Source: Desulfobacteraceae bacterium
Lineage (GTDB): Bacteria; Desulfobacterota; Desulfobacteria; Desulfobacterales; JAABSP01
Assembly (NCBI GenBank): GCA_011390065.1
Contig: JAABTD010000005.1
Location: forward strand, 339-64,338
DNA length: 64,000 bases
Reading direction: 5' to 3'
The notes under the pieces were generated by a model, which saw nothing but the letters and a program-made list of their open reading frames with translations, was not told where the DNA came from and did no database searches. Position 1 is the first letter of the stretch. The number at the start of each line of letters is the position of its first letter. A program made the translations under genes and the position numbers. Positions 14,432 through 55,941 of this stretch are shown in pieces.

Positions 14432-14478
14432 ACTTTCCTCTCAATATGGAATTATGATATATCCCGGCACATTGCTTG

Positions 14479-14916
14479 TCATCTGGGAACCGAAGCGGCG
14501 TCCACCGGTTCGGAAACCGGCGTTCTTTCGACATACACCGTATCGCCGGCGATGGTGGCCCTGAGTTCGCAGGCGCCGCGTCGGCGCAGTCGATGTAAAA
14601 TGTCCCGGACGGCTTCGACGGGCAGGCCGCTGTCGGCGGCCGCTTCATCGGGCGTGATCCGCCCACTCCTGGCGGCCATGGCCTCCAGGACGATCGCTTC
14701 CTTGTCCTGAGGACTCAGACGGATTTCCCGATGCTTCCGGGCCAGCCAGTGGATGGCCCATCCGGCCGCGGCGGCGTAAAAAACGGCCAGGGTGACCAGA
14801 ATGGAGGGCTTTTCACGGGAATAGCCGGCAATGAGGTCATAAACGCACCAGATGACGATGCCGATGCTTAAAACGGCCGCCAGGGCGGCGAGAACTTGTT
14901 TGAATTTCAGGCTCAT
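14479..14916 (-). CDS. two-TM membrane protein with a C-terminal winged-helix-like domain (paralog B)
   Basis: Start MSLKFKQVLAALAAVLSIGIV; second helix ILVTLAVFYAAAAGWAI. The C-terminus aligns with the neighbouring gene (GRITPDEAAADSGLPVEAVRDILHRL). Confidence 0.55.
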   Translation of the reverse strand: MSLKFKQVLAALAAVLSIGIVIWCVYDLIAGYSREKPSILVTLAVFYAAAAGWAIHWLARKHREIRLSPQDKEAIVLEAMAARSGRITPDEAAADSGLPVEAVRDILHRLRRRGACELRATIAGDTVYVERTPVSEPVDAASVPR

Positions 14917-14968
14917 GGGATGGGATTTCGCATTGCGGTTTAGGGGGTTGACGGTTGGGAACGCCCGG

Positions 14969-15403
14969 TCAGAAGGCCGTTGAAACTCTCTCGGCTGACG
15001 CGGTCGCCCCTTTGAACACATAGATCAGATTGCCTTCCTCGGTGACCTGAAGAGTCCCCATGCCGTCGCTGCAGAGCTTGTCCAGGTAGGCCTGGGCTTC
15101 GCCGGCGCTCAGATCGGTTTCAGCGGCAATTTCAAATGGGGCGATGCGACCGCCTTTCGAGGCGATCAGCAACAGAATCTCCCGTTCCATCCGCTCTTCA
15201 GCCTGCTTCCGGCTTTTTTCCCGGCTGTTGGCGGCCATGTAAAAACCGCCGACCCCGGTCAGGGTAAAAAAGACCAGCAGCCCCACCAGCACGGATGTCT
15301 CGGTGTCCGCAACTCCGGAGATCAGGTCGACCAGAGCCGCGATCACGAAGAACGCGCTGAAAAGAACGACTGCCAAGCCCAGGACCGTCATTGCGCGATG
15401 CAT
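14969..15403 (-). CDS. two-TM membrane protein with a C-terminal winged-helix-like domain (paralog A)
   Basis: MHRAMTVLGLAVVLFSAFFVIAAL and VLVGLLVFFTLTGVGGF, then EREILLLIASKGGRIAPFEIAAETDLSAGEAQAYLDKL. Confidence 0.55.
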   Translation of the reverse strand: MHRAMTVLGLAVVLFSAFFVIAALVDLISGVADTETSVLVGLLVFFTLTGVGGFYMAANSREKSRKQAEERMEREILLLIASKGGRIAPFEIAAETDLSAGEAQAYLDKLCSDGMGTLQVTEEGNLIYVFKGATASAERVSTAF

Positions 15404-15480
15404 ATCAGACCTTTCAAAGTATGCGAAGTATGAAGTCGGCCGAAGACGACGTTACTCATACCACCCCCTGAAATCGACTG

Positions 15481-32295: not shown

Positions 32296-32679
32296 CTATA
32301 AATTATCTAAATCATCTAAAGATTGATGTTGCCTGAAAAACACCACAAACTGCTTCAGGCCGCGCAAGGCGTCGGGTTCCAACGCTTTGAACTGGATGCC
32401 GGTGCGGGAAATGCCGTTTCCAGCGTTCCGGGAGTGGACGACCTCGCCCTTCAGCTCCACCAGTTCCTCGGCCAAAGCAAGGGTCAGATCGATGCCCTGT
32501 CCGGACGCCATGGGGAAATGGGTTTCCAGAAGGATGCCCGATTCCGATATGTTCAATGTTTTTCCAATCGCCTAGATGACGGGGGTCTCTCCGTCTTCCA
32601 CGATGACGTGGGACAGATTTTCCGAATCGATCCGGATGTGTCTTCGTTTGTCAATGCTCATATCGCCTGGCATCCTCAT
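32296..32679 (-). pseudogene. PilZ-domain protein interrupted by an in-frame TAG at codon 36
   Basis: MRMPGDMSIDKRRHIRIDSENLSHVIVEDGETPVI-TAG-AIGKTLNISESGILLET. The stop splits the RxxxR and NxSxxG c-di-GMP motifs. The ATG overlaps the upstream stop (ATGA). Confidence 0.6.
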
Positions 32680-33908
32680 TTCTTTTTGGTTTTCGACGCT
32701 GCCTCGCTCTTTTCGGCCGCTTTCCGGCGTTGGAAATCCTGGGCCAGCCGCGTCGCGACCATGACGCTGGTGGAAACGTTTTCGATCAATCCGCGGAACA
32801 TGTTGGAAACGCCTTCAAACTCGTCCTTCAGGCGGGCGACCTCCGGCTTATCGACTTTGAAGGCCACATTCGACGCGGCGAACACCGACGCGTTCAAGGG
32901 CTCGTGTCCGATGTCCAGAAAGGGGACGGCGCCGATAAAATCTCCCGGTCCGAGTTCGGCCAGAAAGAGGGAACCGTTGTCCGTTTTCTGAACGATAAAC
33001 GCCCTGCCTTCGGCGATCGTGAAAAAGTCGTCCGATTCGCTGCCGTTTTGCCGAATAATCGGTTTGGCGTGTTTCAGGAGCGCTTTGGTATTGTTTTTAC
33101 CCTGCTGGATGGCGATGGCGTGTTCGGTGACCTCCTGCAGCCGCTTTTCCAGGCTTCTCAAAAGGCGGCGGAAGGCCGGCGACAATGCGGCGTATTCGGA
33201 TGTGAGCCGCTGGGTGTCGAGCACGCCGAGCTGGACGTCGGAGGCGGCCACGGCGGTGATGTTCCGGGGGCTGCCTTTGAAGGAGAAGGAATCGAGGTTG
33301 CCCAGAAACGCCCCATCTCCCATTCGATAGAGCTTAATCGGTCCCTGGCTCGTCTCCTTGACAATATCCACGAGCCCCTCCAGGACAGTCCAGTTCCATG
33401 AACCATGGGTCTTTTCCTCAACGATGACCTGACCCTCGGAAAATTCGTCCTCGCTGACCACATACATGTAATCGGCCAGCGGCCCTTTGATCACAGGATA
33501 GGAAAGGGGCTTGTCGCAACCGTCGGCGCTTTCCGGGGGGGCGGTCGCCTGTTTTTCATGGCAGAGGCCCCCCAGTTTTTCGATCTGACCGTCGTCAAGC
33601 ATCCGATTGCCGTCGAGAATGATGGCCATCCGATTCTCGTTGATGACCCTGGAAACGGCCGCCTCTTCTTCGATGAACTCGAATTCGCCTTCCAGCCAGC
33701 CGAAAAGGGCATAGGCCGCTTCAAGACCGGTCTTGTCCCCGGCTTTGGCGTTGACGATGTTCCCCTTTGAGAAATAGAGCAGACCAGGTTCCGGCGCGTG
33801 TTCGGATAGTATCCGGAGGGCGCCGGAAGCCCCGCTCGGGCCGATGACCTGGATGAGGTCGCCGAGTGCGAGAAAGTCGAGACTGCCGCTCAGAACCGGT
33901 TTGCTCAT
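32676..33908 (-). CDS. DUF4388 (PATAN-like) + two cNMP-binding-like domains
   Basis: LSGSLDFLALGDLIQVIGPSGASGALRI...GNIVNA...EAAYALFGWLEGEFEF, then two CAP_ED-like segments (..LYRMGDGAFLGNL.., ..LAELGPGDFIGAVPFL..). Confidence 0.7.
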   Translation of the reverse strand: MSKPVLSGSLDFLALGDLIQVIGPSGASGALRILSEHAPEPGLLYFSKGNIVNAKAGDKTGLEAAYALFGWLEGEFEFIEEEAAVSRVINENRMAIILDGNRMLDDGQIEKLGGLCHEKQATAPPESADGCDKPLSYPVIKGPLADYMYVVSEDEFSEGQVIVEEKTHGSWNWTVLEGLVDIVKETSQGPIKLYRMGDGAFLGNLDSFSFKGSPRNITAVAASDVQLGVLDTQRLTSEYAALSPAFRRLLRSLEKRLQEVTEHAIAIQQGKNNTKALLKHAKPIIRQNGSESDDFFTIAEGRAFIVQKTDNGSLFLAELGPGDFIGAVPFLDIGHEPLNASVFAASNVAFKVDKPEVARLKDEFEGVSNMFRGLIENVSTSVMVATRLAQDFQRRKAAEKSEAASKTKKK

Positions 33909-33919
33909 AGAATATCGAC

Positions 33920-34528
33920 CTACCAACCCATCTGTTTTCTGAGGGATTTCAGTGTGAGTTTGATGCATGTCTTCAGCGTGTCCCCGACGCCGTCGCCCCT
34001 GAGGGCGCTGGCTGGAAAGGAGGGCGCCTTCAGCTGGCGATTGAGGTCCCTTTCCATGGTTGTGAGCGACATAATGGGAATTCCCTGTTCCACCAGATCC
34101 CGTTTATTGTACTGCATGACCAGCGGAACTTTAAAGATGCTGAGGCCGTACTCCTTGAGGTTGCCGTGGAGGTCTTTCAGCGACAGGACGTTTTTCTGTC
34201 GCCGGACCGCCAGAGAATCGGCCACAAAGACCAGGCCGTCCACTTCCCGCAGCACCATCTTACGGGTGGCGCTGTATTTGACCTGTCCGGGAACCGTATA
34301 AAGCTGAAGCCGGACATCGTATCCCCTGATCTTGCCCAGCCCCATGGGCAGGAAATCGAAAAAGAGCGTCCGGTCTCCATCTGTTTCGGTGGTGACCATC
34401 TCTCCGGTCACCTGCTTTTGAAAATGTCTGAAAATATAGTCAAGGTTCGTGGTTTTTCCACAACGACCCGGCCCATAATAGACGATCTTGCACTCGATTT
34501 CCCGCTTTTTCAGATTGATATTGGCCAT
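33920..34528 (-). CDS. mglA: MglA-like Ras-superfamily small GTPase
   Basis: INLKKREIECKIVYYGPGRCGKTTNLDYI, LYTVPGQVKYSATRKMVLREVDGLVFVADS and QYNKRD. Very close to the Myxococcus MglA pattern. Confidence 0.85.
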   Translation of the reverse strand: MANINLKKREIECKIVYYGPGRCGKTTNLDYIFRHFQKQVTGEMVTTETDGDRTLFFDFLPMGLGKIRGYDVRLQLYTVPGQVKYSATRKMVLREVDGLVFVADSLAVRRQKNVLSLKDLHGNLKEYGLSIFKVPLVMQYNKRDLVEQGIPIMSLTTMERDLNRQLKAPSFPASALRGDGVGDTLKTCIKLTLKSLRKQMGW

Positions 34529-43264: not shown

Positions 43265-43408
43265 CCATTCCTTTCCATTCCCTTGCATTTCCGGCCATCT
43301 CTAATCAAAAAAATTTAAATAATTATAGGATATTGGGTGGATTATGTCAATCCGCTTGAAAAAAAAGTCCATTCATGGCATTTAGATCAGGTTGCCGATG
43401 GAACCGAA

Positions 43409-44005
43409 ATGAAAAAACCCACAACGGACACAGGGCGAAAGATGAAGCGAAAGACAATTTCTACAACAGGCTTGGCGATGGCGCTATGCGTTCTGGCGAT
43501 GGTTTCGGCAGCAACGGCGGCGGAAATCTCCATCCCCCCGGTCAAAGCCAGGCCGGGCGACGTCATCACCTTTCCGGTGATGCTGGACCGCGTGGACAAC
43601 CTGGCCGGCGTCAAGCTGGTGATGACCTACGACCCTGACATTCTCACGTTTTCCAAAGCGGAAAAAACCCGATTCACCCATTCCATGATGCACATTGTCA
43701 ACGATAAAAAGCCGGGGACGCTGATCGCGGTCATGGCCGCCGCCAGGGGCGTCAAAGGGGAAGAATTTCCGCTTCTCATTATGGAGTTCCGGGTCAACGC
43801 GTCCGTCAAGTCCCCGATGGACGCGGGCATCGAGATCCGGGAAGCGCAATTGATGAGCGACGACCTCAAGGACATTCCGTACACGGTTAAAACCCCGCCG
43901 ATCAAAATCCTCGGCGGCGCGCCCCCGGAAATTCCGGAAAAGAAGGCGGAAAAAGCGCAACCGCCGGGAAAAGGGGAGGGCGATGACGCCTGCGGGGACG
44001 AATAG
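43409..44005 (+). CDS. secreted cohesin-domain protein (start uncertain: 43409 or 43442)
   Basis: Signal-like TISTTGLAMALCVLAMVSAATA. Cohesin signature VKARPGDVITFPVMLDRVDNLAGVKLVMTYDPDILTF. Pro/Lys/Glu-rich acidic tail. Confidence 0.7.
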   Translation: MKKPTTDTGRKMKRKTISTTGLAMALCVLAMVSAATAAEISIPPVKARPGDVITFPVMLDRVDNLAGVKLVMTYDPDILTFSKAEKTRFTHSMMHIVNDKKPGTLIAVMAAARGVKGEEFPLLIMEFRVNASVKSPMDAGIEIREAQLMSDDLKDIPYTVKTPPIKILGGAPPEIPEKKAEKAQPPGKGEGDDACGDE

Positions 44006-44064
44006 TCGATACGACGGTCGATACGACGGTCGATACGACGGTCGATGCGACGGTCGATGCGACG
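44006..44064. repeat. 12-bp direct tandem repeat, about 5 copies
   Basis: TCGATACGACGG x3, then TCGATGCGACGG, then TCGATGCGACG. Starts immediately after the cohesin stop codon. Confidence 0.9.
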
Positions 44065-44095
44065 CCGCCCGTCAGTTGCTGCGAAACACGACGCG

Positions 44096-45016
44096 TTACT
44101 CGGGCCCGGTATCCAGCCGGGGGCTCCTGTCCACCATCTCCCGCAATTCCTGCCAGTCGAAATGGAGATAGCGGCGGGTGGTGTTAAGATTTTCATGCCC
44201 CAATAAATACTGGATAATAATCAGGTTTTCACCTGCGCTCGCTTTGAGGCTCGCACCGGAATGACGCAACAGGTGGGGGCCTCGCTTGCGTTTGAAGATG
44301 CCGGCTCTTTTTAATGCGTCACTGACGATGTTATGGACCTGTTGCGGGGTGAGCGGTTTTCCGTGGCTCGACAGGAACACCCACGGAGACTCCTTTCCCT
44401 TGAACCGCGATCGGGTTCCATACCAATTTTGAAATTTTTCAACGATATGCTCGTTCAGCGGCAACTTGCTCAATTTATCCCGTTTTCTCGACACCCAGAT
44501 CTCCCGCGCGTCCAACCGCACATCTTTTATTTTCAAGTTGACGACCTCCGACACCCGAAGGCAAAGATCTGAAAACAAGGTCAATAAAAGAATGTTCCGA
44601 TGCGTCATCTTGTTCGGTCGTTTATTGTGCTGAAATGCAAAAAGGCGTTCGAGTTCAGAGAGGGTCAGATAATCGGTGTTGGGCTGATAAATTTTTGGCT
44701 TATCGATGGTTTCCGCGATATTTTCCGAAATCAGGGATTCATCGACCAGATAATCCATAAAGCTGATCAAAATATAGATCACGGTCAATTTGGTCGATCG
44801 AAGGACATCCTGGGTCTGAAGATACGCGATAACCGTTTTGCGGGTCAGATCTTCCGGGAAAACAATATCGTGCGCCTTACAGTATTCGGCGAACTTGACC
44901 AGGGCATATCTACGCTTGCTGGTCGTTGCCTTGCTGAAGACGCCGGTGGCTTCTTTAAAAGACACATAATCGTCTACGGCTTGCTTGATGGAAATATTGT
45001 CCATGGATTCGTTCAT
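44096..45016 (-). CDS. tyrosine site-specific recombinase (phage-integrase/Xer family) in a low-GC islet
   Basis: LRVSEV.. (Arg I), HLLRHSGAS (H-x-x-R) and LGHENLNTTRRYLH (catalytic Tyr). By-eye GC is about 45%, against about 60% in the flanks. Confidence 0.85.
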   Translation of the reverse strand: MNESMDNISIKQAVDDYVSFKEATGVFSKATTSKRRYALVKFAEYCKAHDIVFPEDLTRKTVIAYLQTQDVLRSTKLTVIYILISFMDYLVDESLISENIAETIDKPKIYQPNTDYLTLSELERLFAFQHNKRPNKMTHRNILLLTLFSDLCLRVSEVVNLKIKDVRLDAREIWVSRKRDKLSKLPLNEHIVEKFQNWYGTRSRFKGKESPWVFLSSHGKPLTPQQVHNIVSDALKRAGIFKRKRGPHLLRHSGASLKASAGENLIIIQYLLGHENLNTTRRYLHFDWQELREMVDRSPRLDTGPE

Positions 45017-45073
45017 TTGTTCGTTTTTCGCGGAAATGACCGTCTATTGGGATCGGATATAAAAAACTTGAGC

Positions 45074-45107
45074 AATATTTGATAATATGATTATATTATC
45101 AAATATT
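45074..45107. repeat. 34-bp AT-rich perfect palindrome upstream of the recombinase
   Basis: AATATTTGATAATAT-GATT-ATATTATCAAATATT (15-bp arms). Confidence 0.85.
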
Positions 45108-45179
45108 TTGCAGGCCTCTCCCGAGACCCGATTCCGGGCCTGAGTAAATTTCTCTGCAACCCAAGACCTGCCGCACCAG

Positions 45180-46097
45180 CTACAGTTGAATGCTTTTAAC
45201 CCGATTTCTGCCGGCTCTCTTGGCTTCGAAGAGAACCCGGTCACTGCCCTGGATCAAAAAACTCGCCGTCCCTTCCTTGAACGGCGTCACGCTTGCCACG
45301 CCGAGGCTGATGGTCACCCAGTCCGAAACCGGTGAGGGTTCGTGAATGATCCGGAGATCCTCGACGGCTTTTCTCATCTTTTCAGCCATATGAACGGCGC
45401 CCACGAGATCCGTTCTCGGCAGTACAACTGAAAACTCCTCTCCCCCGTATCGGGCCGCGAAGTCGGTCGGCCGATGGAGGCCCTTTGCCAATGTTTTTGC
45501 GACGCGTTTCAGACAATCATCCCCGGCAAGGTGATTGTATGAGTTGTTGTAAGCGCCGAAATAATCGATATCGATCATGATCATAGATAGTTGGCTTGCC
45601 TCCCGGATGCCGGTCCGCCATCCGGTTTCGATGAATTCATCGAAGCGCCGGCGATTGGGGATGCCCGTCAACCCGTCCAGGGACGAGAGGTTTTCCAGTA
45701 CGTCCCGATGCCGTTTCAGCTCCAGGTGAGTTCGGACTCTGGCCTTGACGATGGCCTTGCTGAACGGTTTTGTGATGTAATCCACGGCGCCGAGTTCCAG
45801 CCCCCGGGTTTCGTCTTCTTCCTCGGCCATGGCGGTGATAAAGATAATGGGTATGTTCTTTGTCTTTTCAGAAGTTTTCAGCCGGCGACAGACCTCGTAC
45901 CCATCCAACTCCGGCATCATGATGTCCAGCAGAACGAGATCAATGGGAGGTCCGGACGCGACGAGATCCAGCGCTTCTTTGCCGTTGGTCGCAAAACTGA
46001 TTTTGCACATGGATTTGAGCACCTGGGCCAGCACCCGGATGTTTTCGGAGGCATCGTCCACGATCAATACGCGCTGTTTCCGGGCATCATCGGTCAT
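45180..46097 (-). CDS. response regulator-diguanylate cyclase (REC-GGDEF)
   Basis: VLIVDDA ... DLVLLDIMMPELDG ... ITKPF, then LTGIPNRR, RPTD (I-site) and GGEEF. The ATG overlaps the kinase stop (ATGA). Confidence 0.9.
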   Translation of the reverse strand: MTDDARKQRVLIVDDASENIRVLAQVLKSMCKISFATNGKEALDLVASGPPIDLVLLDIMMPELDGYEVCRRLKTSEKTKNIPIIFITAMAEEEDETRGLELGAVDYITKPFSKAIVKARVRTHLELKRHRDVLENLSSLDGLTGIPNRRRFDEFIETGWRTGIREASQLSMIMIDIDYFGAYNNSYNHLAGDDCLKRVAKTLAKGLHRPTDFAARYGGEEFSVVLPRTDLVGAVHMAEKMRKAVEDLRIIHEPSPVSDWVTISLGVASVTPFKEGTASFLIQGSDRVLFEAKRAGRNRVKSIQL

Positions 46098-49000
46098 GCA
46101 GGCTGCGCCTCCGACTTCACCGCCAGCAATCGGGCGATCTCCGTTGCTTCTTTTCTGGCCCTGGCGAAATCCAGCCTCTGGATATGATGCGAGAGTCGGG
46201 TCAACGGCGCTTCTCCTTCGGGCCATGGCCCCAGAGACCCCTTGAGGGCTTTAAAGGCCTCTTCCGCCTCCAGGTCATTGGCCAAAAGCAGCCTGTCCAG
46301 CGCAGTCAGCCGTTCATAAATGGCCGCATCTTCTGCTGTTCCCGCTTGAAATTTCCCGTCCGACAAATCTGTTTCCGGATCATCAAGGCCCCTGAGCGCA
46401 TCGTTCATCTCCATCAATCGACGGATCGCATCCAAAACCTTGCCAACCGCCTTTTCAAAACAGTCCACGACTCCGGGGTCGGCCTTCCCGGTTTTTCTGA
46501 GATCGTTTTCCAACTGCGCGGCGATGCCGGCCAGGGCGTCCGCGGAAATGTTGCCCGCTACGCCCTTGATGGCGTGAACCTGCTCGATCGCTGCATCGAC
46601 GTTTCCCCGTCCGAGCGCATCCCGGATCGATGAAGAGACGGTTTCATAATCCTCGGCAAAGGATGACAGAAGCCTCATATAAAGCGAGCGATTGCCGCTG
46701 AGACGATTAATCCCTGCCGAAACGTCGATCGCTTCCATTTGCGGCCACGCGTCCGGGGACGGGTTGTCGGGCCCAGCCTCGGTCGGCGCCACTGCAATCC
46801 AGTGGGATAATACGGTCAGCAGTTCCTCGACATTGACGGGTTTGGTCACATAATCATCCATGCCGGCGGCCAGACATTTTTCCCGATCCCCTTTAAGGGC
46901 ATGGGCGGTCATGGCGATGATGGGCAGATTGCGATGTTTCAGGTCCCGGCGAATCTTTCGCGTCGCCTGGTATCCGTCCATCTCCGGCATCTGGATGTCC
47001 ATCAGCACGGCGTCGAAATCGGTTCGCTGAATGGCGGACACAGCCGCCTGGCCATTTTCAGCCGTCTCCACGATCATCCCGGCATGGGTCAAAATTTCCG
47101 CAGCCACCTGCTGATTGATAGGATTGTCCTCCACGATCAGGACCCGCGCGCCGCCGACATCGCCATGAATCGGGATTTCGTCCGCTGCTGAAACGCTTTC
47201 GTCCGGTGAAGCCGTCTCGACGCCGAACACGCCCATGAGGGTATCGAACAGGACCGACGTCTTAATGGGCTTGATCAGAAAACCGTCTACCCCGAGGCTT
47301 TCAGCCTGCTGCATCACCTCTTCCCGTCCAAAGGCGGTCATCATCAACACCGGCAGATCCGGCAGGCTCGGATCATCGTGGACCTGCTTCAGGAGGGCGA
47401 TGCCGTCCATTTCGGGCATCATCCAATCGACGATCAGCAGATCGAAAGCGCCCTCCCCTCCCCTCGCCTTCATGGCCTCCAGCGCCGCGGACCCGGACTC
47501 GGCGCCGAAAGGCCGGAATCCGAAGGACCGAAGGGCTTGCTGAACGATCTCTCTGGCGGCGGCGTTATCGTCCACCACCAGGATGCATTTTCCGCTCAGC
47601 GATCGGGGCGCTTCAGGTTTCGCATCCACGCGGCTCTCCGGCAGATCGAACCGGGCTGTAAAATTGAAGGCGGCGCCTTTGCCCGGTTCGCTCAGGACGC
47701 TGATCTCGCCGTTCATCATCTCCACCAGCCGTTTGGAGATGGCCAGACCCAAACCGGTGCCGCCGTATTTCCGCGTGGTGGAACCATCGGCCTGGCTGAA
47801 GGGCGAAAAAATGCCCCGGATCGCTTCCCGGCCGATGCCGATCCCGCTGTCTTTCACCGTAAACCTGAGCCGCACCCGATCTGCATCTTTATGCAGCAGA
47901 GACGCCCGAACCGCCACGTCCCCTTTGTCTGTAAACTTGACGGCGTTGTTGGCAAGATTGGTCAACACCTGGGTCAACCGCAGCGGGTCGCCGATCAGCG
48001 CTCTCGGCACGTCCTCGTCCGCCGACACCACCAGTTCAATCCCTTTTTCACCGACTTTGCCGGACAGCATGTCCGCGAGGTTTTCCAGTTTTTCCTGCAA
48101 ATCGAACTCAGTCCTCTCCAACTCCATTCGTCCGGCTTCGATTTTGGAAAAGTCGAGAATATTGTTGATGATCTCCAGCAGGGTGCGGCCGGACAATTTG
48201 ACCTTCCGGAGATAATCCCGCTGTTTGGCGGACAGATCGGTTCGCAGGCTCAGGTCGGTCAAGCCGATGATGGCGTTGAGCGGCGTGCGAATCTCATGGC
48301 TCATGTTGGCCAGAAAATCGCTCTTGGCCCGGGTGGCCGCTTCTGCGGCTTCCTTGTCGATTTTCAGTTCTTCGGCTCGTTTTCGCTGTGTGATGTCCTC
48401 CAGGATGCCCTCATAATAGATGCGGTTGTCTTCCTTGTTTCGCACGATATGCGCATTGAGGGAAACGTGTATGACGACGCCGTCCTTCCGGTAGAACCGG
48501 GTTTCAAAATTCTGGACCCGTCCCCGGCGTTCCATGATGCGTTTGAATTCATCGCGCTTTTCGGGATCGACATAAAGCTGTTCCCGCAGATCCGTGACCT
48601 GTTGAAGCAGTTCTTCTTCGGAATCGTATCCCACGATGCGGGCGAACGCGGGATTCACAGCAAGAAATCCGCCTTCCGGCGTCGTCTGGAAGATGCCCTC
48701 GGTGGCGTTCTCGAAGATGGATCGGTAGTTTTCCTCCGATGCCCGCAATGCTTGTTCAACTTTTTTCCGGGCCGTGATGTCCCGGGAGTTCTCCACCACC
48801 ATTTTGGGACGACCATCGGGATGCCATGCCGTGACGCTGGTGGTGCACCAGAAAATCAGATGGTCGCCGTTCACAGAGACGGCGTCGGTCTCGTGTTCGT
48901 GAATTTTCCCGTCCGCAAAAGATTTGAGGGCGATGCAGTGCTCACAGGGTTCGGACCGCCGGCGAAAAACCTCGAAGCACTTCTTGCCGATCATCTCGCG

Positions 49001-49843
49001 CCCAAACAACCGTTTGGCGATGTCGTTGGCCCAGACGATGGTCAGAGTCTCGTCGATCATGCTCATCCGGTCAGTGATGGAATCCATGATCCCGGTCAGT
49101 TCGGCCTGGTTTTCCCGCAGATGTTTTTCGATCTGCCTCCGTTCCCGGATCTCGCTCTGAAGGTCCTCGTTGGCTTCCGCCAGTTCCCGGGTCCTCTCCG
49201 TCACCCGTTGTTCGAGTTCATCGTGGGCCTGGCCCAGCGCCTCTTCGGCCTGTTTTCGTTCCGTGATATCCATGGCGATGCACAGATACCCGCTGATCCA
49301 CCCTTCCGGATCCCACAGGGCATTGATGGTCATATTGACCGGAAAGGCCGTTCCGTCCCGCCGCACATAGGTCCATTCCGACTGATCGGACCAGTTTCGC
49401 AGCGCGTATTCATACAGAAGATGATGGCTCGGGATGCCGAGGATTTTGCCCCGGCGGGTCAGTTCCGATTCCGCATGGAAAATTTCCGGGGTCTGTCGCC
49501 CGAGGACCTCATCTGCCCGGTAGCCCAGCAGATTCTCGGCGCCGGCGTTGAATACGGTGATGACGCCTTCCTGATCGGCGGCGATGATGGAGATCTGAGA
49601 CGCGGAATTGAGCACCGCCTCCCGCTGGGCATTGGCCGACTGGAAACGGCGGAGGATTTTTTCGGTCTCTTCGAACTGCCGGACGACCAGGTCGGCGGTT
49701 ATCTCGGCCGCCTCCCTGGAGACGCGGATCTCCTCCCGCAGCAGCCGGTTTTCCTCAATCAGCGCGGCCGCCTGGTCGGGGTGCACGCCCATGGCTTGCC
49801 GAGAGGGCGCCTGGGGGGTGATGATCTCTAGTGAACGGTGCAT
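46094..49843 (-). CDS. PAS-rich hybrid sensor histidine kinase (multiple PAS, HisKA, HATPase, 2x REC, HPt)
   Basis: Several PAS/PAC segments. [31 protein letters not shown] and GTGLGLAI. Two receivers ([14 protein letters not shown]; [15 protein letters not shown]). HPt [13 protein letters not shown]. No TM helix at the N-terminus. Confidence 0.9.
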
Positions 49844-51330
49844 ACCAGACAGGGATCGAAGGATCTCACGATGAGTTCGGCCTCCAGGGGATCGTCCGGG
49901 TTTCGGACCGGCGCGCCGACGAGCGCCTCTTCGATGGGGCCCCGCAGACCGTTGCCGTCCCGGGGAGAACCGTTCCAGGTCGTCGGCGTAATCACCTGAT
50001 AGGACTGAATGCGGCCGTTGTCGACGGCGACCCAGTGGCCCAGAGACCCCCGGGGCGCTTCCACCAGTCCAAAGCCCTTCCCGCGTTCAATGTCAGGCGC
50101 GTCGTTGTAAAAGAGCCCCTTATTCCGGCTCAGTTCCCGGAGCCACGTCTCCATCGCCGGAAGCGTCCGGCAGGATCGGACCATTCGCGCCAGTTGTCGG
50201 ACAAAAACGGAGGGGCCTTCCTCCCGGACAAGTTGCGTCAAAAGGGGGTCTCCTGCCAGAAGCATCTGGGCCAGGGGACCGGTTTCTGCCGGCAGCCCGT
50301 CATACCGTGGGGCTTTTGCCCACGAATATTGTCGTTTTTCATTGCCGGCGGCATAGGGTTGGGTGACGCCGTCGAACGGATGGCGCGGCGGCCCGTATTC
50401 GGTAAACCAGGAACAATCGATGGACTCGGTGATCCGCTTCTGATCCAGGGGGGCGATCTTTCCCCTGCTGTAAAATCCCGGCGGAAAAAGTTCCCCATCT
50501 CTGCCGAGAGAAGCGACGGCGCTGTCCCGGGGTATGACCAGGCCGCCGAATCCCATAAAATGGGGGTGTCCGGCCCCCATTTTATGAAGGCCTGCCGTCC
50601 GGGCGAACCGAATGAAAAACCCCAGCTCACTCTTCCGGTGGGCGTCGGATGCCGTCAGCCACGCCTTGAGATCGGCCCGGCAGGTCACCTCCGACCACCG
50701 CTCCAGGGAACATCCCAGCACCCGTTCCTCGTACCAGCGCCGGTAATGACGGGCCAGATGCCGGCACTGACTGATGTCGTTGGGACTGGGCAGGCAGACC
50801 ACGCCGCCGGGAACCATAAAGGACGAATGGGGCCATTGCCCCCCCAGGACGGCGATGATTTCCAGAAGGGAGCGGCTTTCGGCAACCGCCTGCAGGACGC
50901 TTGCCCCTTTCATGGGTTCATAACGACGCCTGGCTTCCTTATGCAAAGGATGGTCCGCGAAGCCCGGGCGGGTGAAATCGGCCATGAAAAGCTGAACCGC
51001 CTGGCGGATATCGTTCTGGATCATCTCCGCCATGAGCGCAATGTTCCGGATTCGCAAGGCGTTTCCAGGTATGCGGACCCCGCAGACCATGTCCAGGGCG
51101 CGGGCCGCGGCCGCCAGGTGGGCCGTGGTGCAGATCCCGCAGATCCGGGGGGTGATCACCAGACCGTCCAGAGGGCCCCTGCCCTTCAGGATGTTTTCGA
51201 AGCCCCGGTACATGCTGCCCGTACACCAGGCATCCCGGATGGCCCCGTCTTCGATCTGGAGATGGACTTTCAGATCGCCTTCGACCCGGTTGAAGGGAAA
51301 TATGCGGATATGTTTTTTCTCTGTCGGCAT
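49828..51330 (-). CDS. [NiFe]-hydrogenase large subunit, sensory type (no C-terminal extension)
   Basis: RICGICTTAH near the N-terminus. The protein ends exactly at DPCLVCTVH-stop. The stop region overlaps the kinase start by 16 nt. Confidence 0.9.
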   Translation of the reverse strand: MPTEKKHIRIFPFNRVEGDLKVHLQIEDGAIRDAWCTGSMYRGFENILKGRGPLDGLVITPRICGICTTAHLAAAARALDMVCGVRIPGNALRIRNIALMAEMIQNDIRQAVQLFMADFTRPGFADHPLHKEARRRYEPMKGASVLQAVAESRSLLEIIAVLGGQWPHSSFMVPGGVVCLPSPNDISQCRHLARHYRRWYEERVLGCSLERWSEVTCRADLKAWLTASDAHRKSELGFFIRFARTAGLHKMGAGHPHFMGFGGLVIPRDSAVASLGRDGELFPPGFYSRGKIAPLDQKRITESIDCSWFTEYGPPRHPFDGVTQPYAAGNEKRQYSWAKAPRYDGLPAETGPLAQMLLAGDPLLTQLVREEGPSVFVRQLARMVRSCRTLPAMETWLRELSRNKGLFYNDAPDIERGKGFGLVEAPRGSLGHWVAVDNGRIQSYQVITPTTWNGSPRDGNGLRGPIEEALVGAPVRNPDDPLEAELIVRSFDPCLVCTVH

Positions 51331-51345
51331 ACGCCGAAACCTTTT

Positions 51346-52284
51346 TTAAATGCCGGTTTTTCGTTTTTTGAGCCGCTGGGGAGCTGCGGCCGCCGCCATT
51401 CCCTTGTAGGCCAGATAATGCGCCCGCCCCACCCCGTCGGGCAAATCGATGGGGATGCCCTCGATGTTCCGCGTCTTGAAAAACGGGTACTGCTGAGGAA
51501 AGTCGGGGCGGGTGCAGCCGAAACAGGGGACGCCCACCCGGGTCTTGGACGACCGACCGTTCCACAGGATCTTGTTGCAGGGACCCTGAACCAGCGGTCC
51601 ATGGCATCCGAGGTAAAAAAACATGCACCCTTTCTCGCCGAACCGTTTTTCCTCGACCCGGAACTCGTGATATTCGTTGCGGGTGCAGCCCTGATGGACC
51701 ATCATGCCGTACCATTCCAGGGGCGTCCCATAGTCCCCCAGCTCGATGTTCGCGCCTTCCGCCAGTTGAGAAAGGATCCCCGTCACCACATCGCAATGGC
51801 AGGGGCACCCCGGCAGGTTGATGACGGGCGTTCCCTGGAGGGTTTGGAAGTCCGGCCCCAGGAAGCCGCCTTTGTCCCACTTGTGATACTGGACCCCGGT
51901 GGCCTCGATCTCCCCGTCGGACCCGATGCCGCCGAAGCTGGCGCAGGTGCCGACGGCGACGATGCAGCGGGCTTTCCGGGCCAGGGTCGCCACCAGGTCC
52001 TTTTTGGGCCGACCATATGCTTCGTCGTACATTCCGGTCCCCCCCGGCCCCCGGATGACCGATCCCTCGATGCAGAGCACATCGAGGGGCCGCTGATCCG
52101 AAGTCAGCTCCGCCAGGAGGTGTTCCTGCTCCGCCAGGGACATCGCGGAAATGGACGGGTGCCACAGCAATTCAATATCGAGCATCCCGAACAGCTCGGG
52201 AAGATGAGGCGATCGCGCGTTGAACAGCGACCAGGTGTCGCCCCCGCACCCGCCGCACTGGAGCCAGTAAAGGGATAATGTCAT
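51346..52284 (-). CDS. [NiFe]-hydrogenase small subunit, no Tat signal
   Basis: MTLSLYWLQCGGCGGD, GTCASFGG, GCPCH and further Cys clusters (GCHGP..GPC, CFGC). Start chosen 4 nt after the polA stop; the track's upstream ATG would overlap polA. Confidence 0.85.
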   Translation of the reverse strand: MTLSLYWLQCGGCGGDTWSLFNARSPHLPELFGMLDIELLWHPSISAMSLAEQEHLLAELTSDQRPLDVLCIEGSVIRGPGGTGMYDEAYGRPKKDLVATLARKARCIVAVGTCASFGGIGSDGEIEATGVQYHKWDKGGFLGPDFQTLQGTPVINLPGCPCHCDVVTGILSQLAEGANIELGDYGTPLEWYGMMVHQGCTRNEYHEFRVEEKRFGEKGCMFFYLGCHGPLVQGPCNKILWNGRSSKTRVGVPCFGCTRPDFPQQYPFFKTRNIEGIPIDLPDGVGRAHYLAYKGMAAAAAPQRLKKRKTGI

Positions 52285-52288
52285 GGTC

Positions 52289-54982
52289 TCAATGCGCCTC
52301 CGTCCAGTTTTCCCCGACGCCCACATTGACCTTCAACGGCGCCCGCAGGTCCCACACCCCTTCCATGATCTCCTTCACCAGATCTTCCAGGACCTTCAGT
52401 TCCTCCGGCGGCGCTTCGAAGATCAGTTCGTCGTGGACGGTCAGGAGCATGGCGGATTGGAACGCCTTTTCCGCGATGGCGTTCTCCACCCGGATCATGG
52501 CCAGCTTAAGGAGGTCGGCGGCGGTGCCTTGGATGGGGGTGTTGAGGGCGATCCGCTCGGCGAACTGGCGGACGTTCCGGTTGGCGCTGTCGATCTCGGC
52601 CAGCAACCGGATGCGGCCCAGGAGGGTGCTGGTCCGGCGGGTCTTCCGGGCGTCTTCGACGGCCCTTTCCATGAACTTTTTGACCCCCTTGTACCGGTCG
52701 AAATAGTGGTCGATATAGGTTCCGGCCATCTGCCGGCTGATGCCCAGTTGTTGGGACAGCCCATGGGCGCTCATGCCATAGATGATGCCGAAGTTGATGG
52801 CCTTGGCCTGCCGCCGCAGTTCCGGCGTCACCGCCTCCTGGGCGACTTCGAAGACCTCGGCGGCGGTTCGGGTATGGATGTCCTCTTCTTTTTCGAATGA
52901 TTCGATGAGGATCGGATCTTCGGAATAATGGGCCAGAATGCGCAGTTCGATCTGGGAATAATCGGCCGCCATCAGCCGCCACCCCTTCCGCGGGATAAAG
53001 GCGCTGCGGATCTGCCGCCCTTCTTCGTCCCGGACGGGAATGTTCTGGAGGTTGGGGTCCGACGAACTCAACCGGCCGGTGGCGGTAACGGTCTGGTTGA
53101 AGGAGGTGTGGACCCGTCCGGTCTTTGGATCGCACATCTCCAGCAACGCGTCGGCATAGGTCGATTTGAGCTTTGAGATCGTTCGGTGGCGAAGCACCAT
53201 GGCCGGCAGTTCGTGCTGGGTCGCCAGCAGGGTGAGCACCTCCACATCGGTGGAATATCCGGTTTTTTTCTTGGTTTTTTTCTGCACCGGCAGGCCCAGC
53301 CGCTCGAACAGGATCACCCCCAGTTGCTGGGAAGATTTGATGTTGAACCGTTCACCGGCCACTTCGCAGATGGTTTCTTCGAGCCGTTCCAGCTCATCGG
53401 CAAAGCTCCGGGAAAGGGTCTTCAGCCGTTCCCGATCGACGCAGATGCCCCGCCGTTCCATTTTCATGAGCACCGGAACCAGGGGCATTTCCACTGTTTC
53501 CATGAGCCGGGCCACGCCGATCTTTTCCAGCTGCTCACGCAGGATCTGGTACGCCCTGAAGGTCACATCGGCGTCCTCGCAGGCATAAGTCGCGGCTTTG
53601 TCCACAGCCACCTCGCTGAAGAGGATCCCCTTTTTGCCGCCGCCGCCCGTCACCTCCGCATAGGTGATGGTCTTGTGGTTCAGGAAATCGAGGGCGATCT
53701 GATCCAGGTTGTGGTTCCGCTTGGAGGGATTGACCAGGTAAGACGCCACCATGGTATCGAAGTCAACTCCGGCCAGATCGACGCCGCAGCGGGACAGGAC
53801 GACCCAGTCGTATTTGATGTTCTGCCCGACCTTTTTCAGCCCGTTGTCCTGGAGGATGGGCTTGAGGGCTTCCAGGACCGCCTCGCAGGGGAGCTGCTCC
53901 GGGGCCCCCATGTAATGGTGGCCGCAGGGAATATACCAGGCTTTGTGGGGTTCGCAGGAGAAAGACAGCCCCACCAGCCGGGCTTCCATGGGGTTTTCAG
54001 ACGTTGTTTCAGTATCCAGGGCGAAACGTCCGGCGGACCGCAGCGCCGATACCAGCGCCTCCAGGTCTTCCATGGTGAAAATCGTCCGGTAAGTGGTGTC
54101 GACGGGGTCCGGATCCTCGCCCGGGAATTCCCGCTGAAGCTGGTTGAATTCCAGGGTCTTGAACAGGGTGAAGAGCTTGGCTTTATCCGGCTCGGTGAAT
54201 CGGAAGTTCCTGGGGTCGCTTTCTTCAGGGAGCAGATCCACCCTGGTCTCGATGGTGGCCAGTCGGCGGCTCAGAAACGCCTGATCCCGGAAGTTGATCA
54301 GGTTTTCCTTCTGCTTTTTCCGGGTGATGCTCTGGACGTTTTCATAGAGCCCCTCCATGGAACCGAATTGTTGCATCAGGGCCACGGCCGTCTTCTGGCC
54401 GATGCCGGGCACGCCGGGGATGTTGTCGGACGCGTCGCCGGCAAGGCCCAGCACATCGGCCATCCGCTCCGGTTCGATGCCGAAGGATTCCCGCACGGCG
54501 TCGAGGTCCGTGACCTTGTCTTTCATGGGATCCCACAAGCTGGCCTCTTCCCGCACCAGTTGGACGAAATCCTTGTCCCCTGTCACCATGATCACGTCAA
54601 ACCCTTCGGACACCGCCTTTTCCGAAAGGGTTCCGATGAGATCATCCGCCTCGAATCCGGTTTTCTGGATCATCGGCAGGTTAAAGCCCTTGACGACCTG
54701 ATGGATGTAAGGGATCTGTTCCGCCATGTCTTTGGGCATGGGAGGACGGTTGGCTTTGTAATCCTTGTAGATTTCGTGCCGGAACGTGGGTCCCTTGGCG
54801 TCGAAGAACACGGCGGCGTATTCCGGCTTTTTCTCCTGCATGAGCTTCAGGAGCATCCGGGTGAAGCCGAAAACCGCATTGGTGGGCAGTCCTTTGGAGT
54901 TGGTCAGGCCGCGAATGGCGTGGTAGGCCCGGTGGATGTAGGCCGTCCCGTCGATCAAATAAAGCGTTTTGCGTGGCGTCAT
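52289..54982 (-). CDS. polA: DNA polymerase I
   Basis: 5'-nuclease N-terminus (LIDGTAYIHRAYHA), a 3'-5' exonuclease region (LDTETTS) and polymerase motifs (DYSQIELR, KAINFGIIYG, VHDE). Confidence 0.95.
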   Translation of the reverse strand: MTPRKTLYLIDGTAYIHRAYHAIRGLTNSKGLPTNAVFGFTRMLLKLMQEKKPEYAAVFFDAKGPTFRHEIYKDYKANRPPMPKDMAEQIPYIHQVVKGFNLPMIQKTGFEADDLIGTLSEKAVSEGFDVIMVTGDKDFVQLVREEASLWDPMKDKVTDLDAVRESFGIEPERMADVLGLAGDASDNIPGVPGIGQKTAVALMQQFGSMEGLYENVQSITRKKQKENLINFRDQAFLSRRLATIETRVDLLPEESDPRNFRFTEPDKAKLFTLFKTLEFNQLQREFPGEDPDPVDTTYRTIFTMEDLEALVSALRSAGRFALDTETTSENPMEARLVGLSFSCEPHKAWYIPCGHHYMGAPEQLPCEAVLEALKPILQDNGLKKVGQNIKYDWVVLSRCGVDLAGVDFDTMVASYLVNPSKRNHNLDQIALDFLNHKTITYAEVTGGGGKKGILFSEVAVDKAATYACEDADVTFRAYQILREQLEKIGVARLMETVEMPLVPVLMKMERRGICVDRERLKTLSRSFADELERLEETICEVAGERFNIKSSQQLGVILFERLGLPVQKKTKKKTGYSTDVEVLTLLATQHELPAMVLRHRTISKLKSTYADALLEMCDPKTGRVHTSFNQTVTATGRLSSSDPNLQNIPVRDEEGRQIRSAFIPRKGWRLMAADYSQIELRILAHYSEDPILIESFEKEEDIHTRTAAEVFEVAQEAVTPELRRQAKAINFGIIYGMSAHGLSQQLGISRQMAGTYIDHYFDRYKGVKKFMERAVEDARKTRRTSTLLGRIRLLAEIDSANRNVRQFAERIALNTPIQGTAADLLKLAMIRVENAIAEKAFQSAMLLTVHDELIFEAPPEELKVLEDLVKEIMEGVWDLRAPLKVNVGVGENWTEAH

Positions 54983-55017
54983 GTTGTCTTATCCGCTCCG
55001 GCAGAAGTTGGATGGCA

Positions 55018-55046
55018 TTGACAAATTCGGATGAAACCGGTATCAC
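55018..55046 (+). promoter_or_regulatory. possible sigma70-type promoter for the Cys-rich small ORF
   Basis: TTGACA, 17 nt, TATCAC, about 40 nt upstream of the ATG at 55086. Confidence 0.3.
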
Positions 55047-55085
55047 CCGAACCCGGATCTACAATCGCAAGAAAGAGTATCATTG

Positions 55086-55331
55086 ATGACCCCAAATAAC
55101 AATACGGCGTCGGAACGACCCGTTGCCGCCATGAGCCGCGCTCGACGCCGACGGCAAAAAGAGACGGTCTGTCACTGTTGCGGAGACATTTTCCCCTTCT
55201 GCTGGCGGTGCCGTTGCGGGTTCGCCATCTGTCAGGCGTGCATGCTGGAAAACTTCTGGGGGATGTCGTGCAACGGCATCACCTGGAAATGCCCGGATTG
55301 CGGCCAATGGAACGGATACGGCAACCAGTAG
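55086..55331 (+). CDS. small Cys-rich zinc-ribbon-like protein
   Basis: 81 aa. Basic N-terminus, then CHCCGDIFPFCWRCRCGFAICQACMLENFWGMSCNGITWKCPDCGQWNG. Twelve Cys, including paired CxxC motifs. Confidence 0.45.
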   Translation: MTPNNNTASERPVAAMSRARRRRQKETVCHCCGDIFPFCWRCRCGFAICQACMLENFWGMSCNGITWKCPDCGQWNGYGNQ

Positions 55332-55359
55332 CGGCGAAACAGATTTCGCCCATAGATAG

Positions 55360-55941
55360 CTACCCCTGGACCCGCCAGTCGCCGCCCGGCCCCTGGATTT
55401 TTTCTCCGGGCAGGGCGTTTTCGACATTGAGCCGGCCGAAAATGCGGCGCACCTCCGGCAGTTGTTCTTCCGACAGATGCTCGCTGGTCTCAATCACCCG
55501 ACGCATCACCACCTCCCGGGCCTCGTTGCACCGGGACACCACCGCCTCGAATTCCTCACCGGTATATCGCGCGGCAAATTCCGCCAGATCCGGGGGCGGC
55601 AATGCGGCCTTCATATCGAAAGAGGTCAGCAACCCCTCGTTGTTCTCCCCGACCCAGCCCAGCCGTTTGAATGCCTGGAGGTCGTCGGCGTGAAAGGCCA
55701 GCACCTGCAGGGCGGTGATGGCGTCCCGGTGCTCCTGGCTGTGGCGGGGCGGTTTCCGGATTTCTCCACGGGCATCCACCCCCCGGACCGAGGCCGCTAA
55801 AAGCATCTCACGGTCCAGGGCGTTATAGGCGCCCAGCACCTGATTTTCCAGGGTCGTGCGCTCGCTGACCACTTCCACCTTGACATCCGCCAGGGTGCAG
55901 CCGCACAAGGCCGCCAACAGCAGCGCAATCCAATTTCTCAT
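55360..55941 (-). CDS. DUF1318/YdbL-like periplasmic lipoprotein
   Basis: AAGGAG Shine-Dalgarno. Lipobox LLLAALCGC. GWVGENNEGLL and EAVVSRCNEAREVVMRRV resemble the DUF1318 pattern. Lies 10 nt downstream of the YdbH-like gene. Confidence 0.6.
   Translation of the reverse strand: MRNWIALLLAALCGCTLADVKVEVVSERTTLENQVLGAYNALDREMLLAASVRGVDARGEIRKPPRHSQEHRDAITALQVLAFHADDLQAFKRLGWVGENNEGLLTSFDMKAALPPPDLAEFAARYTGEEFEAVVSRCNEAREVVMRRVIETSEHLSEEQLPEVRRIFGRLNVENALPGEKIQGPGGDWRVQG

Follow-up and report, generated by a model that had tools for sequence, protein, structure and literature searches.

Hydrogen is a central electron donor, and an interspecies currency, for sulfate reducers and syntrophs. To our knowledge, H2 sensing is so far understood for one pathway only, that of HoxBC/HupUV, by which aerobic H2 oxidisers control their hydrogenase genes. 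A second class of [NiFe] hydrogenases with a suspected signalling role, group 2c, has been a prediction since 2016. It is labelled 'diguanylate cyclase-linked (putative)' in HydDB, where its role is listed as undetermined (PMC5037454). The L2 motif consensus of the group was given as SFDxCLVCTVH in a study of Thiomargarita, in which hupL of Methylobacter tundripaludum was the top BLAST hit for the group 2c assignment (PMC4853749), and group 2c has been reported in Methylobacter genomes (PMC12810054). No experimental study of any 2c member was found in the literature searched, in agreement with a first-pass annotation of the locus described here. This locus, a fresh member of the predicted, experimentally uncharacterised class, lies in a 64,000-nt stretch (the window) of contig JAABTD010000005.1 (assembly GCA_011390065.1) of a Desulfobacteraceae bacterium. 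Four minus-strand genes, located immediately after polA, encode the small and the large subunit of a [NiFe] hydrogenase, a hybrid histidine kinase (HK) and a REC-GGDEF response regulator. The observations presented below suggest, with a probability of about 0.6, that this cytoplasmic hydrogenase is an H2 receptor feeding a phosphorelay to a diguanylate cyclase, and not an energy-conserving enzyme. The core of the first-pass annotation, a sensory-type group 2c hydrogenase relaying to a cyclase, is supported as far as sequence analysis reaches.

The small-subunit gene (51346-52284, minus strand; 312 amino acids; Pfam Oxidored_q6 and NiFe_hyd_SSU_C) is separated by 15 nt from the large-subunit gene (49828-51330, minus; 500 amino acids; Pfam NiFeSe_Hases). 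The kinase gene (46094-49843, minus; 1249 amino acids; Pfam three PAS regions, HisKA, HATPase_c, two Response_reg and Hpt) begins with an ATG at 49843, 16 nt within the large-subunit gene, and its stop codon overlaps, as ATGA, the start codon (46097) of the REC-GGDEF gene (45180-46097, minus; 305 amino acids; Pfam Response_reg and GGDEF). At the other end, the stop codon of polA (52289-54982, minus) lies 4 nt before the small-subunit ATG, an adjacency that is kept in close relatives. The two overlaps and the 4-nt gap had been described in the same way in the first-pass annotation and were confirmed from the coordinates and the sequence, and Pfam confirmed all domains named there. The kinase start is slightly uncertain, because a second candidate ATG is found 17 codons downstream and no clear Shine-Dalgarno motif precedes either of them; in two relatives (L003 and L006) the gene call uses the overlapping ATG, with an identical 16-nt overlap. 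Transmembrane-grade hydrophobicity was reached by no 19-residue stretch in any of the four operon proteins, which fits the earlier description of the kinase as soluble. By Pfam, there is no sigma-54 activator in the operon. Single-sequence phmmer searches of the window, seeded with HypA-F, HoxM, HoxN, cytochrome b and the membrane-bound hydrogenase (MBH) subunits of Cupriavidus necator, matched the two hydrogenase genes only, and detected no hyp gene, maturation protease, cytochrome b or second hydrogenase in the 64 kb; the absence of hyp genes had been noticed before.

The position of the enzyme among the [NiFe] hydrogenases was determined with a neighbour-joining tree (100 bootstraps) of 92 large subunits, which came from 80 fetched genome loci and, for HoxC, HupV, HoxG and other references, from plasmid records. 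The large subunit from the window falls within a clade of 52 sequences (clade B, bootstrap 98), whose sister is clade A (23 sequences, bootstrap 100) with M. tundripaludum and Ideonella dechloratans. The node uniting the two clades has a bootstrap value of 99, and HoxC/HupV (group 2b), the Huc-type sequences (group 2a), an archaeal clade and group 1 are all outside it. The large subunit also matches the 2c L2 consensus SFDxCLVCTVH at residues 489-500. Because of the tree placement, the L2 match and the Methylobacter reference, we file the enzyme, judged from its sequence, under group 2c in the broad sense, in the sister clade of the reference sequences rather than inside it. The assignment to putative group 2c made in the first-pass annotation has therefore held: the large subunit is not within group 1 or 2a, stands apart from 2b, and joins the literature 2c reference clade as its sister with 99% bootstrap support. 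The linkage to a cyclase or phosphodiesterase that characterizes group 2c is present in indirect form, the REC-GGDEF gene being located two genes downstream in an overlapping gene string and connected through the hybrid kinase.

The nearest database relatives are five proteins with 79-84% identity to the large subunit, followed at 54-60% by a very large family from Desulfobacterales, Planctomycetota, Chloroflexota and others. The best match among solved structures is Huc (E 4e-119, aligned over nearly the full length), and the identity to HoxC/HupV is 37-39%. Membership in group 2a was rejected on the grounds that a C-terminal extension, a protease gene and hyp genes are missing, that a signalling partner is present and that the Huc-type clade is separate. 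Group 2b was rejected in view of the low identity, the separate clade, Leu114 at the position of Phe110, the lack of the HoxB tail and the lack of a HoxJ-type kinase.

To establish what accompanies these hydrogenases, open reading frames (ORFs) were called in each locus and domains were marked by profiles seeded from the window and from reference loci. Several loci are short metagenome contigs, and partner counts were limited to those in which the sequence continues for at least 1.5 kb downstream. In all 65 clade A and clade B genomes with enough flanking DNA, a signalling gene came right after the hydrogenase. In clade B (44 of 44 loci) this partner was a plain HK in 22 cases, mostly with three PAS domains and about 700 residues long, and an HPt-type hybrid HK followed by REC-GGDEF, the arrangement of the window, in 15. 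The remaining clade B loci had other hybrid kinases (4), a direct GGDEF partner (2) or a hybrid HK with REC-PP2C (1). Clade A partners (21 of 21 loci) were PAS-GGDEF-EAL proteins in 14 cases and HKs in seven. None of the 12 Huc-type and archaeal loci had a signalling partner; they carried a maturation protease gene and, in many cases, also hyp genes. A survey of co-occurrence with GGDEF/EAL genes had been proposed in the first-pass annotation. A signalling gene of some kind was present in every case (65/65), and a GGDEF protein was the endpoint in only 31 of the 65 surveyed loci, about half. The class now called 'diguanylate cyclase-linked' is better named 'signal-transducer-linked'. In two related loci (L030 and L047) hypD and hypE are present a few kb downstream.

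Several classical 2c partners open, within the first ~110 residues, with a Rieske-like domain (CPHxGC ... CPxH) that precedes a conserved coiled-coil module and the PAS-GGDEF-EAL or HK part. It was seen in L059 (M. tundripaludum), L058, L067, L075, L077 and L090. This domain is possibly an electron-accepting input of these partners.

All 52 clade B partners have an N-terminus that matches residues 1-80 of the window's kinase, no matter whether PAS-HK, HisKA directly or GGDEF follows. The shared module is about 50 residues long and has the consensus EN.lLR.EIRVAR.AAEITA.LVV.QFEETE.IL.RFQ.AN; in the window's kinase it covers residues 27-79 (49607-49765, minus) and is the proposed hydrogenase-coupling helix. 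A profile of the module matched 55 of the 6966 ORFs of all loci, and every one of these is a partner, including one that was displaced 6 kb downstream by an insertion. The module belongs to no Pfam family; the only Pfam hit was a sub-threshold one to DUF7900 (E 0.049, 14.7 bits with a cut-off of 27), which was not counted. AlphaFold, run on kinase residues 1-210 with no alignment, predicted a single long helix at residues 22-81, with a predicted local distance difference test score (pLDDT) of 85-96 over residues 21-70. The PAS part of the same model had a pLDDT below 50, and no fold comparison was drawn from it.

The module was also searched for outside the surveyed loci. An exhaustive comparison of residues 20-82 with 1.84 billion representative proteins gave 121 matches, of which 120 were N-terminal (within the first ~100 residues), and the module alignment found just 12 short fragments in an index of 5.8 billion proteins. 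The fifty long matches were kinases or cyclases, with HATPase in 45, HisKA in 41, REC in 36, HPt in 21, GGDEF in four and SpoIIE in one. When the test was reversed, four of five proteins found through the module turned out to be located directly after a [NiFe] hydrogenase; their partners and outputs were a REC-HD-GYP regulator, a GAF hybrid kinase, PAS-HK-REC and a fusion of HycI, module and GGDEF (the fifth protein is discussed below).

The spacing between the module and the phosphorylated histidine follows a simple rule. In PAS-less partners from the genome loci the distance was 47 (twice), 54 (twice), 61 (three times), 82 (five times) or 110 residues, and all of these values equal 5 modulo 7. 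In an independent global set of PAS-less proteins the same was true for 10 of 11 distances (26, 47, 54, 61, 82 and 110; the exception was 60), whereas PAS-containing proteins had a flat distribution with no preferred register. That six length classes share one register points to a continuous coiled coil from the module into DHp, which in turn argues that the module is the input end of these kinases. Taken with its distribution, the N-terminal helix is probably the hydrogenase-coupling element of the clade B partners. Within the literature searched, the modular outputs, the hybrid-kinase wiring that recurs in 15 genomes and the clade B-wide helix in heptad register appear to be new.

Clade A partners have a conserved N-terminal module of their own, which is 74 residues long and was found in 21 of 21. 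It matches the N-termini of HoxJ and HupT (L001 7612-8955, which is HoxJ; L092 5464-6822; L093 1660-2997) with E-values of 5e-9 to 5e-7. The clade B module gave no match to HoxJ/HupT (E >0.1), and its resemblance to the clade A module is weak (hhalign probability 57%). The kinases of group 2b and the partners of classical 2c hydrogenases therefore seem to share one input element, and clade B seems to use a different one.

The kinase consists, in this order, of the N-terminal helix, PAS1, a coiled-coil linker, PAS2, PAS3, HisKA, HATPase, two REC domains and HPt, an architecture that also follows the hydrogenase in relatives. PAS1 (residues 82-198; 49250-49600, minus; Pfam PAS_4) comes directly after the helix. 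It was matched by phmmer in about 20 non-redundant partners outside the window's subclade (E ~1e-24 to 1e-54), and in two further partners (L034 and L037) over its first half only. PAS2 (residues 245-365; 48749-49111, minus) was aligned with the five PAS2-bearing relatives and is limited to the window's subclade plus L016 and L056. Its four cysteines C289, C300, C303 and C333 (C-x10-C-x2-C-x29-C) are kept in all five of these relatives and may form a metal or Fe-S site. PAS3 (residues 372-484; 48392-48730, minus; Pfam PAS, PAS_9 and PAS_3) is followed by the HisKA and HATPase core (residues 506-731; 47651-48328, minus; identified by Pfam, with H-box, N-box, G1 and G2) and by the phosphorelay tail (46445-47584, minus; two Pfam Response_reg and Hpt), which comprises REC1 (residues 754-870), REC2 (901-1012) and HPt (1058-1133). 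The residues required for a relay are intact: H516, the N629 box, DSGIG (G1), GGTGLGL (G2), D806, D949 and, in the HxxKG motif of HPt, H1090. The response regulator has the receiver aspartate D58 and the segment RPTDFAARYGGEEF (residues 209-222), in which the RPTD I-site (209-212) precedes the GGEEF active site (218-222) by five residues (Pfam GGDEF E 2e-41); the motif check confirmed what had been read there initially. The possibility that the kinase is a HoxJ orthologue was rejected, as the ATPase domain alone matches. The first-pass annotation had looked to a PAS domain for coupling, by analogy with HoxJ. This did not stand: many clade B partners have no PAS domain, and all have the N-terminal helix.

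Residues of the small subunit were read from an alignment with HoxB, HupU, Huc-type sequences and HoxK. The protein opens with MTLSLYWLQCGGCGGD, directly at the first cluster cysteines, and, unlike the membrane-bound HoxK, has no RRxFLK twin-arginine (Tat) leader, as had been noted at first sight. The proximal cluster has Cys 10, 13, 114 and 160 as ligands, the distal cluster His197, Cys200, Cys220 and Cys227, and the medial cluster only Cys 236, 254 and 257; the three-cluster wire is complete. Extra cysteines, 162 and 164, stand right after the fourth proximal ligand in the sequence GCPCHC (residues 159-164; window 51793-51810). About 37 of 43 clade B small subunits contain GCPC. No small subunit of clade A, 2b, 2a or group 1 does, and the sequence there is GCPAHP, GCPTHP or GCPPIA. 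Cysteines 162 and 164 are not at the positions of the extra cysteines of O2-tolerant group 1d enzymes.

The large subunit contains RVEGD (residues 15-19), RICGIC (62-67) and DPCLVCTVH (492-500), and ends at H500 with no C-terminal extension. The Ni-Fe ligands are C64, C67, C494 and C497; further residues of interest are E17 and D19 of RVEGD, I66, H71, L114 and R427. Across 37 diverse family members, no variation was seen in the four Ni-Fe cysteines or in the residues for proton transfer and catalysis, and the ORFs are intact in relatives with the same synteny (79-84% identity). The sequence NRVEGDL had been taken for a mark of a sensor-type enzyme. This view had to be given up: all group 2 sequences have RVEGD, among them the energy-converting Huc (group 2a, PDB 7UTD/7UUS), and the motif therefore marks group 2 and not a sensor.

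Sensory and Ech hydrogenases are known to lack the large-subunit extension (PMC6769069), and its absence had been regarded as the hallmark of a sensor in the first-pass annotation. The absence is real, and the protein ends as HoxC/HupV do, but it is atypical of this family: 114 of the 120 nearest large-subunit homologues carry an extension of 2-32 residues, and so do all 23 sequences of the classical 2c clade (A), often with an adjacent gene for a HycI-type protease. Among clade B loci the length of the extension tracks the presence of such a gene. With an extension of at least 11 residues the protease gene was adjacent in 18 loci and not adjacent in nine, with 1-10 residues in three and eight, respectively, and with no extension in none and six. 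The window's subclade is one of a few lineages without it: the extension was lost at least twice within clade B, in that subclade and in a Desulfamplus-type lineage (L032, L034 and L037), and is also absent in P0103. In view of this pattern, the proteolytic maturation step appears to have been dropped in the window's subclade and, independently, in the Desulfamplus-type lineage, as in group 2b. In many family members the extension is only 4-7 residues long. Two loci have unusual arrangements. In L099 (2-1485) a single called gene is a fusion of a HycI protease domain, the N-terminal module and GGDEF, and the large subunit just upstream ends in ...CLVCSVY plus a 16-residue extension, with Tyr replacing the terminal His of the family. 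In L015 (~13460-17760, clade B) the hydrogenase-kinase pair is followed, a few kb downstream, by what looks like a disrupted second hydrogenase: another small-subunit gene, the large subunit in three fragments, and a short protease ORF.

From the genes, their motifs and their conserved linkage we infer how docking, H2 dependence, phosphotransfer and the physiological output might be arranged. The hydrogenase would be matured by Hyp proteins encoded elsewhere and with no proteolytic step. A dimeric hybrid kinase would be bound to it through the N-terminal helix (residues 27-79), and binding or oxidation of H2 would alter the redox or conformational state of the hydrogenase. This change would run along the helix and the coiled coils, through the PAS domains, to DHp and alter autophosphorylation of His516. 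The phosphoryl group would then pass from His516 to Asp806 or Asp949, to His1090 of HPt and to Asp58 of the REC-GGDEF protein, whose GGEEF site would make cyclic di-GMP (c-di-GMP) under feedback through the RPTD I-site. In this way the cell would set its c-di-GMP level, and the behaviour that c-di-GMP controls, by ambient H2. In the regulatory hydrogenase (RH) system of Cupriavidus the kinase phosphorylates the regulator HoxA when H2 is absent, and H2 switches the phosphorylation off (PMC10073562).

What speaks for a sensor is chiefly the linkage, the content of the operon and the coupling module, and not the active-site residues. The operon contains hydrogenase and signalling genes only, and there is no Tat leader, electron-transfer partner or protease in it. 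A number of observations weigh against this reading. Around the active site the protein looks like a working enzyme, with Glu17, His71 and Arg427 in place, the gas-channel residues Ile66/Leu114 are as in Huc and differ from the Ile/Phe pair of RH, the Gln typical of RH (Q67) and a fourth medial-cluster cysteine are absent, the small subunit ends 14 residues before HoxB and so lacks the HoxB-specific C-terminal tail, and the closest solved relative, Huc, is an energy-converting enzyme. The class placement comes from a distance-based neighbour-joining tree of 92 sequences and not from the HydDB classifier, and it is only from co-occurrence that docking through the helix is deduced. In addition, for the fifth protein of the reverse test (L098 3434-7204), a hybrid kinase with a REC-GGDEF neighbour, no hydrogenase was found in the 3.4 kb upstream or the 5 kb downstream. 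The L098 kinase adjoins an RNase PH gene and is the only exception found; its hydrogenase may be elsewhere in the genome or may have been lost. The enzyme-like features would suit a working cytoplasmic uptake or H2-recycling enzyme, similar to group 2a, whose electron acceptor is encoded elsewhere, while the kinase and cyclase answer other PAS cues and merely share the operon or regulate the enzyme. The intact catalytic residues, the Ile/Leu channel, the kinship to Huc and the three-cysteine medial cluster, which is that of standard enzymes, all agree with such a role, and the three PAS domains of the kinase could bind ligands of their own. We consider it unlikely nevertheless, taking into account that no redox partner, cytochrome, hyp gene or protease is encoded in the operon or the window, that a signalling partner of one of five output types follows the hydrogenase in 65 of 65 loci from several phyla, and that Huc-type loci have no such partners. 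Moreover, the hydrogenase-specific module is present even in kinases that have neither PAS nor any other sensor domain, and in these the hydrogenase is therefore the only visible input.

If the hydrogenase is accepted as a sensor, the signal could still travel as electrons, from the distal cluster to a cofactor of the kinase, for instance a metal centre on the four PAS2 cysteines, so that the kinase would read a redox state. The full three-cluster wire of the small subunit, the conservation of the four cysteines in all PAS2-bearing relatives and the Rieske-like domain of some classical 2c partners, a plausible electron acceptor, speak for this route. PAS2, however, is confined to a small subclade and its cofactor is hypothetical, and many partners have no PAS, Cys-rich or Rieske domain but just a helix in heptad register to DHp. 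For this reason the mechanical route is favoured as the common mechanism, and signalling by electrons is judged improbable. Least probable of all, with only a slim chance, is that the module senses some other signal, such as O2, CO or the cytoplasmic redox poise, on a hydrogenase-fold scaffold, or that the hydrogenase is an inactive relic. The clade-specific GCPCHC cysteines beside the proximal cluster could tune it to another signal, and there are no hyp genes nearby. On the other hand, the invariance of the Ni-Fe cysteines and of the proton-transfer and catalytic residues, and the intact ORFs in the same synteny at 79-84% identity, speak against this reading, as do hypD and hypE a few kb downstream in L030 and L047.

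A reading that goes further than an H2 receptor coupled to a cyclase is offered more tentatively, and we would put it slightly below even odds. It holds that the helix is a dedicated, undescribed coupling module, which defines a family of hydrogenase-coupled transducers with interchangeable outputs, that the H2 signal is passed on mechanically through the fixed heptad register, and that clade B is a distinct lineage of H2 sensors beside classical 2c and 2b. The outputs would then comprise plain kinases, hybrid kinases feeding REC-GGDEF, REC-HD-GYP or REC-PP2C, and directly fused GGDEF domains.

The surroundings of the operon were also examined. Synteny is kept in the relatives with 79-84% large-subunit identity, in the order polA, small subunit, large subunit, kinase, REC-GGDEF, tyrosine recombinase, cohesin-domain protein, ispF, cysS and uvrB. 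Beyond the operon end lie the gene of the tyrosine recombinase (Phage_integrase; 44096-45016, minus) and that of the small cohesin-domain protein (43337-44005, plus), and G+C falls to 0.51 at 44001-46000. As both genes are in the same position in these relatives, they do not represent a recent insertion. In the closest relative (84% identity; L003 7617-8933 and L004 3124-4440) a gene for an AAA_15 ATPase is located between polA and the small subunit and runs about 10 nt into the start of the latter. A scan of 44000-55600 for promoters and terminators gave counts that did not exceed those in shuffled sequence. The remainder of the window looks like ordinary chromosomal DNA, with rnf genes, a molybdopterin oxidoreductase, acetyl-CoA synthetase, uvrC, uvrB, cysS and ispF. 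It also encodes two cyclic-nucleotide-binding proteins (20298-22628, cNMP_binding-CBS-DUF294 nucleotidyltransferase; 32676-33968, DUF4388-cNMP_binding) and a large HisKA-HATPase kinase (15481-18210), none of which has an evident link to the hydrogenase operon.

If the proposed pathway is correct, many anaerobes (Desulfobacterota, Planctomycetota, Chloroflexota, Nitrospinota and others) would tune c-di-GMP, and with it attachment, aggregation or motility, to ambient H2, which would bear directly on the assembly of syntrophic consortia and biofilms. The survey points to a way in which sensor and kinase may be joined in the predicted class, and yields handles for experiments: a defined 50-residue helix, a defined phosphorelay and natural variants with simpler architectures.

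Among the described systems, the classical 2c loci of M. tundripaludum and I. dechloratans are similar to that of the window in having a Tat-less cytoplasmic small subunit, SFDxCLVCTVH, a downstream signalling gene and a predicted c-di-GMP output. They differ in gene order (small subunit, large subunit, HycI protease, PAS-GGDEF-EAL), the cyclase/phosphodiesterase being the direct partner, and their large subunit has an extension of 12-13 residues. In the window, by contrast, hydrogenase and cyclase are connected indirectly, by way of a hybrid kinase and an HPt relay, protease and extension are missing, the conserved helix at the start of the partner is not the same, and GCPC(H)C takes the place of GCPAHP in the small subunit. 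Huc, the high-affinity uptake hydrogenase of Mycobacterium smegmatis, shares RVEGD, RICGIC and the Ile/Leu channel residues. Huc-type genes, unlike those of the window, encode a 19-residue extension and are accompanied by a protease gene, in several cases with hyp genes nearby, and by no signalling partner; Huc-type small subunits are also without the first proximal cysteine and the distal histidine, both of which are kept here.

The group 2b systems (HoxBC-HoxJ-HoxA of C. necator and HupUV-HupT-HupR of Rhodobacter) likewise place a cytoplasmic hydrogenase beside a soluble histidine kinase, and their large subunits, as seen in HoxC and three HupV/HoxC sequences, end at CTVH with no extension and have RVEGD and Ile in CGIC. 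Their principle is that the hydrogenase is the receptor and the kinase the transmitter (PMC10073562), and the gas channel of RH is narrowed by Ile62/Phe110 (PMC11023054). The hydrogenase of the window has Leu114 at the place of RH Phe110, His71 at that of RH Gln67, three instead of four medial-cluster cysteines and no HoxB tail; a four-step relay leads to a REC-GGDEF protein as its output, and not to a sigma-54 activator, and its kinase is not orthologous to HoxJ.

In the putative sensory [FeFe] hydrogenases of groups C and D (HydS type), too, a hydrogenase fold is the presumed H2 receptor and is combined with PAS signalling, through fused PAS domains (PMC8163306, PMC13104023). They belong to an unrelated superfamily and unite sensor and PAS in one chain, whereas the locus of the window encodes separate proteins with a proposed helix as the joint. 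HPt phosphorelays that end in REC-GGDEF, and an RxxD I-site five residues before the active site, are features of the PleD/WspR family. The window's relay resembles the PleD/WspR-type relays in the HisKA-HATPase-REC-HPt series and in its REC-GGDEF protein, where an RxxD I-site precedes GGEEF by five residues, and differs from them in that its kinase has two receiver domains and that the input is a hydrogenase and not a membrane or chemosensory signal.

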